The notes under the pieces: model-generated | The model's input: only the letters and a program-made list of their open reading frames with translations | Databases searched by the model: none | Told to the model about the DNA's origin: nothing | Translations under genes and position numbers: made by a program | Shown: in pieces, positions 15,242 to 42,595 of the stretch | Numbering within the stretch: the stretch's first letter is position 1 | How the letters are laid out: the number at the start of each line of letters is the position of its first letter | Assembly: GCF_013122565.1 (NCBI RefSeq) | Contig: NZ_CP053258.1 | Strand: one strand, 5' to 3' | DNA length: 64,000 nucleotides | From: Escherichia coli | Lineage (GTDB): Bacteria > Pseudomonadota > Gammaproteobacteria > Enterobacterales > Enterobacteriaceae

Positions 15242-15261
15242 GTTTCCTCCCTTCCTTGCTA

Positions 15262-15288
15262 AGCCCTCTCAACCGAGAGGGCTTTTTC
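15262..15288 (+). terminator. Intrinsic terminator of lysP
   Basis: Stem agccctctc / gagagggct with aacc loop, then TTTTT. Confidence 0.8.
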
Positions 15289-40717: not shown

Positions 40718-41305
40718 ATGAGCCATGTCTGGGGACTGTTTTCTCATCCCGATCGTGAAATGCAGGTGATTAATCGCGAAAACGAAACGATTTCTCACCA
40801 TTACACCCACCACGTTTTGCTGATGGCGGCGATTCCGGTGATTTGCGCCTTCATTGGCACTACACAGATTGGCTGGAATTTTGGCGATGGCACTATCCTG
40901 AAGTTATCCTGGTTTACCGGACTGGCGCTGGCTGTCTTGTTTTACGGCGTTATGCTGGCTGGGGTTGCGGTGATGGGGCGGGTCATCTGGTGGATGGCGC
41001 GTAATTATCCGCAGCGTCCGTCACTTGCGCACTGCATGGTCTTCGCGGGCTACGTTGCAACTCCGCTGTTTTTAAGCGGTCTGGTGGCGCTCTACCCGCT
41101 GGTCTGGTTGTGCGCGCTGGTCGGCACGGTGGCACTGTTTTACACCGGTTACCTGCTTTACCTTGGTATTCCGAGCTTCCTGAATATCAACAAAGAGGAA
41201 GGCCTTAGCTTCTCCAGTTCGACGCTGGCGATTGGCGTGCTGGTGCTGGAAGTGCTTCTCGCCCTAACCGTTATACTATGGGGCTACGGTTATCGTTTGT
41301 TCTAG
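40718..41305 (+). CDS. yohC: Yip1-family inner-membrane protein YohC
   Basis: ORF-track 40694..41305; ATG at 40718 after aagggggcgg gives 195-aa MSHVWGLFSHPDREMQVINREN... Confidence 0.88.
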   Translation: MSHVWGLFSHPDREMQVINRENETISHHYTHHVLLMAAIPVICAFIGTTQIGWNFGDGTILKLSWFTGLALAVLFYGVMLAGVAVMGRVIWWMARNYPQRPSLAHCMVFAGYVATPLFLSGLVALYPLVWLCALVGTVALFYTGYLLYLGIPSFLNINKEEGLSFSSSTLAIGVLVLEVLLALTVILWGYGYRLF

Positions 41306-41478
41306 AAAGTTCTTTTGCGTTGCATTGCTGGCGTAAATGTCAGCAATGCAGCATTTCCTCACGATTCTCCTTTGACGATCGCACTTTTTGCTCGTTATGA
41401 TGGCGTCGCTAGCCTCAGTAAATCCTTACTCCGGCGGTGCGCAACCCGTGCGCGTGAACCACTATCTGAATGCTCATC

Positions 41479-42411
41479 ATGCCGAAATTTCGAGTTTCTT
41501 TATTTAGCCTGGCCCTTATGCTGGCTGTGCCTTTTGCACCGCAGGCCGTTGCGAAAACGGCAGCCGCTACCACCGCTTCACAACCGGAAATTGCCTCCGG
41601 TAGCGCGATGATTGTTGATCTGAATACTAACAAAGTGATCTATTCGAACCACCCGGATCTGGTGCGTCCGATTGCGTCTATCAGCAAATTAATGACCGCG
41701 ATGGTTGTGCTGGATGCACGACTGCCGCTGGATGAAAAACTAAAAGTGGATATCAGCCAGACGCCGGAGATGAAAGGGGTCTATTCGCGCGTACGACTGA
41801 ATAGCGAAATCAGCCGTAAAGATATGCTGTTGCTGGCGCTGATGTCTTCAGAAAACCGCGCGGCGGCAAGCCTTGCGCACCATTATCCCGGTGGTTACAA
41901 AGCCTTTATTAAGGCAATGAATGCGAAAGCGAAATCGCTCGGAATGAACAACACGCGCTTTGTTGAACCTACCGGATTGTCGGTGCATAACGTTTCAACT
42001 GCCCGTGACTTAACCAAACTGCTCATTGCCAGCAAACAATATCCGTTGATCGGTCAGTTAAGTACTACCCGGGAAGATATGGCAACCTTCTCTAACCCGA
42101 CGTATACGCTGCCGTTCCGCAATACTAATCATCTGGTGTATCGCGATAACTGGAATATCCAGCTAACCAAAACCGGCTTTACCAATGCGGCGGGCCATTG
42201 TCTGGTGATGCGTACGGTTATCAATAATAAACCGGTGGCGCTGGTAGTGATGGACGCGTTTGGCAAATATACCCATTTTGCCGATGCCAGCCGCCTGCGT
42301 ACCTGGATTGAAACCGGTAAAGTGATGCCTGTTCCGGCAGCAGCGTTGAGCTATAAAAAACAAAAAGCCGCCCAAATGGCGGCGGCGGGGCAGACGGCAC
42401 AGAACGATTAA
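41479..42411 (+). CDS. pbpG: D-alanyl-D-alanine endopeptidase (PBP7)
   Basis: ATG at 41479 gives 310-aa [25 protein letters not shown]...; SxxK motif SISK; matches PbpG. Confidence 0.92.
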
Positions 42412-42414
42412 GAG

Positions 42415-42595
42415 TAGGCAGGATAAGGCGTTTACGCCGCATCCGGCATTCGGAGCACAATGCCTGATGCGATGTTTGCGCATCTTATCAGGCCTACAAA
42501 CGTGACGCGTCCGTAGGCAGGATAAGGCGTTCACGCCGCATCCGGCATCCGGTGCACGCTGGCTGATAAGATGCTTGCGCATCTTATCAGGACTC
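42415..42595. repeat. BIME/REP cluster between convergent pbpG and dld
   Basis: Two copies of gcaggataaggcgtt(t/c)acgccgcatccggcat plus repeated gcgcatcttatcagg units. Confidence 0.75.

Follow-up and report, generated by a model that had tools for sequence, protein, structure and literature searches.

Results

Organization of the yohC–pbpG intergenic region

The Escherichia coli DNA analyzed in this study is a stretch of 64,000 nucleotides (contig NZ_CP053258.1; hereafter the window), in which yohC and pbpG are arranged in tandem on the + strand. The intergenic region between them holds an RNA hairpin with its tail, a conserved box, the pbpG promoter, and the pbpG leader (Table 1). The yohC stop codon (TAG) is located at 41303–41305, and YohC homologues carry PF04893. 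Over the 301 nt from 41200 to 41500, the best identity among 5426 complete E. coli genomes was 99.0% and the identity to K-12 was 98.3%; the window is not K-12. E. coli strain E69 (L006, CP089930.1) has exactly the same sequence between the yohC stop and the conserved box.

The −10 hexamer (TATGAT) of the pbpG promoter is located at 41396–41401. The same hexamers were reported as a constitutive RpoD promoter of pbpG within the yohC–pbpG spacer by genomic SELEX (Shimada 2014; PMC3946193), and a 2025 study described a single pbpG promoter, in the spacer of which a marbox allows MarA, SoxS, and Rob to repress pbpG (PMC12052159). The pbpG transcription start was inferred at approximately 41405–41409, which places the hairpin at about −89 to −56. 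The leader motif found by Rfam, Peptidase-S11 (RF03039), shares with the hairpin its location in the intergenic region upstream of pbpG and its conservation across Enterobacteriaceae, but the two elements are distinct, with the hairpin 42 nt ahead of the match, not covered by the model and upstream of the promoter. The start of the Peptidase-S11 consensus (GgUAUGAUGcCG) coincides with the −10 hexamer TATGAT, and the first 12 to 14 positions of this "RNA" motif are therefore probably promoter DNA that precedes the transcription start.

Further downstream, two REP-type elements (Rfam naRNA4/CssrE) are found between pbpG and dld, at 42417–42494 (80.6 bits) and 42516–42593 (65.9 bits). An intrinsic terminator of dld is present on the − strand at 42367–42386 (GCCGCCGCCATTTGGGCGGC followed by TTTTTGTTTT), with the RNA 3′ end near 42352, and sits within the 3′ part of the coding sequence of pbpG, which is convergent with dld. 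Adams 2021 lists the dld 3′ end in its supplement as "antisense pbpG" at K-12 coordinate 2223987 on the + strand.

Table 1. Features of the yohC–pbpG region. Positions refer to the window except in the last row, in which they refer to the individual loci.
Feature	Position	Strand	Basis or remark
yohC CDS, Yip1-family inner-membrane protein	40718..41305	+	ORF list; RefSeq annotation of K-12-derived L081
5′ stem arm GUUGCAUUGCUGGC	41319..41332	+	Repeat search, folding, covariation
Loop GUAAAU	41333..41338	+	6 nt in Escherichia, Citrobacter, Enterobacter
3′ stem arm GUCAGCAAUGCAGC	41339..41352	+	Repeat search, folding, covariation
Tail AUUUCCU	41353..41359	+	Weak, interrupted U-tract; read from sequence
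Conserved box CACGATTCT	41360..41368	+	About −48 to −40; promoter-linked, outside hairpin
pbpG sigma-70 promoter, TTGACG-18-TATGAT	41372..41401	+	Promoter scan; PMC3946193; PMC12052159
Peptidase-S11 RNA motif (Rfam RF03039), pbpG leader	41394..41474	+	72.8 bits vs gathering 34.8; E = 6e-13
pbpG CDS, PBP7, D-alanyl-D-alanine endopeptidase	41479..42411	+	ORF list; RefSeq annotation
Insertion sites	L022 3086-3115; L026 3086-3160; L031 3086-3140

The inverted repeat folds into an extended RNA hairpin

A repeat search of 41100–41600 detected only one inverted repeat, with arms at 41321–41330 (TGCATTGCTG) and 41341–41350 (CAGCAATGCA). The arms are 10 nt each, 100% complementary, and spaced by 10 nt; the entire segment 41321–41350 reads TGCATTGCTG-GCGTAAATGT-CAGCAATGCA. 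The first arm starts at the 16th nt past the yohC stop. A previous reading of this DNA, made without database searches (hereafter the sequence-only reading), had described a perfect 10-bp hairpin 16 nt after the yohC stop and upstream of pbpG, and the repeat search confirmed this description; its placement of the hairpin in the pbpG leader was incorrect, as the pbpG promoter lies downstream of the hairpin. RNA folding extended the stem to 14 bp, with 41319–41332 paired with 41339–41352 around a 6-nt loop (GUAAAU), and the pairs gained over the perfect 10 bp were G-C, U.G, G.U, and C-G. The ΔG of the + strand hairpin was -24.0 kcal/mol, compared with -12.0 ± 2.4 kcal/mol for shuffled sequences (z = -5.0), and none of 200 shuffles equaled it. 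Three of the + strand pairs are G.U, and the − strand therefore folds less stably (-17.4 kcal/mol, z = -2.3).

In each of 5377 E. coli genomes, the hairpin occurred at a single place, which carries no annotated feature, and the repeat arm was found nowhere else in the window. No Rfam family scored above its threshold at the hairpin. Two weak hits, BTnc201 (22.9 bits; gathering score, 105) and mir-33 (17.4 bits; gathering score, 50), were rejected as chance matches to a generic hairpin. The REP/BIME elements (naRNA4) are likewise intergenic palindromes able to stabilize upstream mRNA, but the present hairpin is single-copy and has no sequence or Rfam likeness to REP, and naRNA4 gave no Rfam match at the site. 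A nine-codon ORF (ATG CAG CAT TTC CTC ACG ATT CTC CTT TGA; 41346–41375, + strand) begins inside the 3′ arm. We consider this ORF (MQHFLTILL*) to be probably noncoding and rejected it as a coding sequence; it has no Shine–Dalgarno sequence, its start lies within the stem, and the Citrobacter freundii group has lost the ATG.

We considered whether the palindrome could be a chance or neutral sequence without function. Perfect 10-bp inverted repeats with a loop of 3 to 12 nt occurred 0.74 times per shuffled 64-kb window, and at least one was present in 42% of the shuffles; the bare 10-bp repeat is therefore only mildly unusual and is not decisive. However, the extension of the stem to 14 bp (z = -5) and its conservation exclude chance for the hairpin as a whole: its position is kept and its stem covaries over approximately 80 species, as described below. 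This explanation is effectively refuted, and we regard its probability as negligible.

The hairpin is conserved and covaries in Enterobacteriaceae

Loci were collected with a YohC scan using one genome per species, which gave 80 Enterobacteriaceae loci, and a K-12 derivative and three further genera were added. The yohC–pbpG synteny was intact in 85 of 85 loci. A strong hairpin was present at the same place in 82 of the 85 sequences, representing approximately 80 Enterobacteriaceae species, and was missing in Buttiauxella, Cedecea, and Dryocola (L047, L064, and L074). Before the three further genera were added, 79 of 82 sequences had the hairpin past the yohC stop and ahead of the pbpG promoter, and the ΔG values ranged from -13.8 to -32.2 kcal/mol, with a median of -24.8 kcal/mol. 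Each of the three genera added later, namely, Cronobacter, Tenebrionibacter, and Kluyvera, has the hairpin. Divergent versions of the hairpin were still significant (z = -2.5 to -9.6). In a protein search for YohC in distant Enterobacterales, the matches listed all had at least 78% identity, and the full-length ones at least 82%. An enterobacterial YohC with 85–87% identity to that of E. coli is encoded in two records that are labeled as Chryseobacterium sp. 18061 and as Vagococcus sp. WN89Y. L038 (CACSKA010000001.1) also has the full yohC–pbpG context, and the other YohC record is P0071; both assemblies are probably mislabeled or contaminated.

For the covariation analysis, 49 sequences with the E. 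coli geometry were aligned without gaps. Pairing was retained in 93% of the cells, and changes on both sides were observed at 6 of the 14 pairs, for example, 13 sequences have G-C in place of A-U. The covariation score was 0.210, compared with 0.147 ± 0.008 for shuffled alignments (0 of 500 reached it), and was at most 0.067 when the partners were slid. A wider structural alignment of 71 distinct sequences showed alternative Watson–Crick types at 12 of the 14 pairs. Among the non-Watson–Crick cells of the inner 12 pairs, read on the yohC-sense strand, 31 were G.U and 1 was A.C, which means that it is the yohC-sense RNA, rather than its complement, in which pairing is kept. When the alignment was used to build a covariance model, the model found one match per locus and no match in Buttiauxella, Cedecea, or Dryocola; over the 64-kb window, it gave one match besides its own weaker mirror image.

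The geometry of the stem and loop varies among genera. Klebsiella, Raoultella, Kluyvera, and Pseudocitrobacter carry an extended stem and loop in place of the 6-nt loop, and the spacing of the conserved outer halves (CATTGC…GCAATG) increases from 14 nt to 23–24 nt. Yokenella, Siccibacter, and Cronobacter have an unrelated GC-rich stem, the fold of which is still significant (z = -3.2 for Yokenella and -5.6 for Siccibacter). Because of the covariation, the varying stem and loop lengths, the replacement of the stem, and the excess of G.U over A.C, the comparison indicates that selection acts on a + strand RNA hairpin and not on a protein-binding palindrome with fixed spacing. The sequence-only reading had suggested conservation analysis as a check, and its outcome is RNA pairing under selection on the yohC-sense strand. 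The palindrome is a genuine RNA stem-loop, conserved across Enterobacteriaceae, between yohC and the pbpG promoter.

The 3′ arm together with the tail (CAGCAATGCAGCATTT) is conserved beyond the needs of pairing. Salmonella has lost the outer 5′ arm and forms a shorter, 6-bp stem, and the 3′ arm and tail are kept there. This over-conservation, Salmonella included, hints at an additional, sequence-specific constraint. The distance from the yohC stop to the hairpin varies from 5 to approximately 90 nt, and all insertions lie past the stop codon on the yohC side of the hairpin, with none on its promoter side (L022, L026, and L031). These insertions, in Raoultella and Enterobacter sp. JUb54, comprise 24–66 nt ahead of the conserved hairpin, and that of L031 carries a second perfect hairpin (GGTTCAGGCGAC/GTCGCCTGAACC).

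The hairpin lacks a U-tract

The sequence that follows the stem (ATTTCCTC) has no real U-tract; the tail ATTTCCTCAC (AUUUCCUC, AUUUCCUCAC) contains 4 T within its first 8 nt. A consensus terminator scan with a threshold of at least 5 T in 8 did not call the hairpin, and the same scan did pick out the dld terminator, which is encoded on the − strand. The T-run in the 10-nt tail was at most 3 in all 79 orthologous hairpins (79/79), and the T count in the first 8 nt was 3–5 in 69 of 79, mostly 3 or 4; the Enterobacter tail is CAUCUGUU. The T-tract weight of a d'Aubenton-Carafa-type score was 1.46 at the hairpin versus 2.78 for a canonical terminator at 15261–15284 in the same window; only the T-tract part of the score was used, and the comparison is a rough one. 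The full d-score was dropped as uninformative with modern energies because a clear terminator in the window received merely +5.6. The lack of a U-tract in every genus examined indicates that the hairpin is most likely not a classical Rho-independent terminator. In having a strong hairpin with a short loop right after the stop codon and co-directional with the gene, it resembles a canonical intrinsic terminator, but the U-tract that defines such terminators is missing from it, both in E. coli and in each of the orthologues examined. The sequence-only reading had proposed a Rho-independent-like terminator lacking a T-run, which is a fair account of the anatomy: a genuine hairpin directly after yohC without a U-tract.

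A conserved box is linked to the pbpG promoter

A constant 36 nt separate the box CACGATTCT from the pbpG −10 hexamer downstream of it (L001–L084), and the stem base lies 3–12 nt (mode 7–8) upstream of the box. Buttiauxella, Cedecea, and Dryocola keep the box without the hairpin, and hence the box belongs to the pbpG promoter. The −35 hexamer of this promoter is consensus-like (TTGACG) only in Escherichia; elsewhere, CTGGCG, GTAGCG, or TTAGCC is found. These features, namely, the fixed and retained box next to a −35 that is poor outside Escherichia, suggest a candidate activator site or UP-like element. The tight packing of the hairpin and the box may simply follow from the shortness of an intergenic region that is constrained by the promoter. 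Two other candidate sites were rejected. The consensus spacing of sigma-54 promoters from GG to GC is 10; a sigma-54 reading of CTGGCG…CAGCA gives a spacing of 11. A CRP site built on the conserved TCACG was the other, and a search for its second half-site found none.

Discussion

The hairpin described here is an ordinary kind of element that had previously gone unannotated. It is co-directional with yohC and lies directly past its stop codon, and the reading that we favor, with a confidence slightly above even, is that the stem-loop defines and protects the 3′ end of the yohC mRNA after non-canonical termination, either Rho-dependent or leaky. The sequences show the hairpin, its selection as a + strand RNA structure, the absence of a U-tract, and its position relative to yohC and the pbpG promoter; we infer the location of the 3′ end, any involvement of Rho, and the stabilizing and insulating roles of the stem-loop. 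RNA polymerase would run past the hairpin and be released slightly downstream, in untranslated RNA that, in Escherichia, is rich in C and poor in G. The RNA would then be trimmed to the stem base by 3′-to-5′ exonucleases, and the stem-loop would shield the yohC message from decay; the termination or trimming point would be expected at the tail (41353–41359). Because the stem base is located so close to the pbpG promoter region, the same hairpin would also restrict read-through from yohC into the pbpG promoter.

A comparable class of 3′ ends was described by Dar and Sorek in 2018 (PMC6061677), who found that Rho-dependent transcripts end just past stable stem-loops lacking a U-rich tail, that rut sites adjoin these on the downstream side, and that the loops guard against PNPase and RNase II. 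The hairpin shares with this class a stable stem-loop just past the coding region without a U-rich stretch. In Escherichia, the adjoining downstream sequence is C-rich and G-poor in a rut-like manner; the 80 nt past the stem contain 24 C versus 13 G, and the GC skew is -0.26. However, the C>G bias does not extend to all genera (it was observed in only 48 of 79 loci), and the downstream region is here the promoter of another gene; the constraints of the pbpG promoter itself may explain the base composition. Among the entries of the Adams 2021 3′-end tables and the TERMITe supplements, there was no yohC entry or coordinate near the expected K-12 position, which is weak evidence because these are thresholded and possibly incomplete lists and yohC is perhaps poorly expressed.

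The main rival of a protected 3′ end is a weak but functional intrinsic terminator of a non-canonical type, in which the hairpin and the AUUU tail would themselves free RNA polymerase, possibly with help from NusA or NusG, and yohC transcription would end at approximately 41356–41361. The stable, GC-containing stem, the canonical loop size, the position immediately past the stop codon, the one A and three U residues that follow the stem, and the moderately T-rich tail of most genera are all consistent with such a terminator, and terminators between tandem genes typically lie, as this hairpin does, right beside the next promoter. The tail nevertheless argues against it: the consensus scan did not call the hairpin, T-runs are limited to 3 in all orthologues, the tail in Enterobacter reads CAUCUGUU, and the T-tract weight is below that of the canonical terminator in the window. 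Direct release would also be expected to have selected a U-tract in at least some of the approximately 80 species. We therefore judge an intrinsic terminator to be unlikely, although it deserves more weight than the remaining alternatives. Alternatively, the hairpin could serve pbpG as a cis-acting RNA element in yohC–pbpG read-through transcripts, for example, as a hairpin that directs processing or adds stability on the 5′ side of a pbpG mRNA that has been processed, or as a docking site for an RNA-binding protein, ProQ being one example. Read-through is plausible without a U-tract, the distance from the hairpin to the pbpG promoter and leader is near-fixed, whereas that to the yohC stop is not, and a known structured leader motif (Peptidase-S11) lies downstream. 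However, pbpG has its own constitutive sigma-70 promoter past the hairpin, the only one reported (PMC3946193 and PMC12052159), the fold of 41340–41480 was not significant (z = -1.1) and did not link the hairpin to the leader, and the three genera without the hairpin still keep the promoter box and the leader. A role as a pbpG element is thus improbable.

The sequence-only reading had also raised the possibility of a regulator-binding palindrome, that is, a DNA site for a dimeric transcription factor centered at about −72.5 of the pbpG promoter, with CytR as one candidate. Dyad symmetry is perfect in E. coli, the center near −72.5 from the inferred pbpG start is usual for upstream regulators, and the 3′ arm is unusually well conserved. 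The CytR octamer GTTGCATT, as quoted in a comparative study of the CytR regulon (PMC3454398), occurs exactly (8/8) at 41319–41326, and AATGCAGC at 41345–41352 matches 7 of 8 positions of its inverse; CytR operators consist of octamer repeats GTTGCATT between CRP sites. By contrast, the half-sites of the hairpin are everted relative to AATGCAAC-N-GTTGCATT and separated by an 18-bp spacer, flanking CRP sites are lacking (no CRP-like site, TGTGA-N6-TCACA, within 3 mismatches in 41250–41430), the spacing is unconserved, and the covariation is of the RNA type. Neither pbpG nor yohC is among the candidates of the comparative study (PMC3454398), and the known MarA/SoxS/Rob site of pbpG sits in the promoter spacer (PMC12052159). 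More generally, a protein-binding palindrome needs a fixed spacing and cannot tell G.U from A.C, and the outer halves of this one are spaced by 14, 23, or 24 bp, Yokenella, Siccibacter, and Cronobacter have a wholly different stem, and its compensatory changes and G.U-only mismatches point to RNA pairing on one strand. An operator is accordingly disfavored and very unlikely. We assign a similarly low probability to a positionally locked functional composite of the hairpin and the pbpG promoter, in which the hairpin would do more than end yohC. This idea arises from the locked distance between the stem and the box, the over-conserved 3′ arm and tail, and the confinement of all indels to the yohC side. 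One possible variant is a hairpin-stabilized pause or termination at the conserved C-A-C-G, approximately 10–11 nt past the stem, a his-pause-like geometry; if true, the pbpG promoter would be shielded or tuned according to yohC transcription. Another possible variant is an RNA–protein docking site that would couple the expression of both envelope genes.

The favored reading, a stem-loop at the yohC 3′ end, is of modest importance in itself and adds a previously unannotated, evolutionarily validated 3′-end stem-loop to the yohC–pbpG region. It corrects the view of the palindrome as a part of the pbpG leader or an operator, and it flags the conserved box at −48 to −40. For the regulation of pbpG, including that by MarA, SoxS, and Rob and that involving the Peptidase-S11 leader, the hairpin sets the upstream boundary of the promoter region. 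With clear covariation over approximately 80 species, it also provides a clean example of a conserved terminator-like hairpin that never gained a U-tract, and this conservation without a U-tract supports the idea that such hairpins are selected as 3′-end protectors or insulators rather than as intrinsic terminators.
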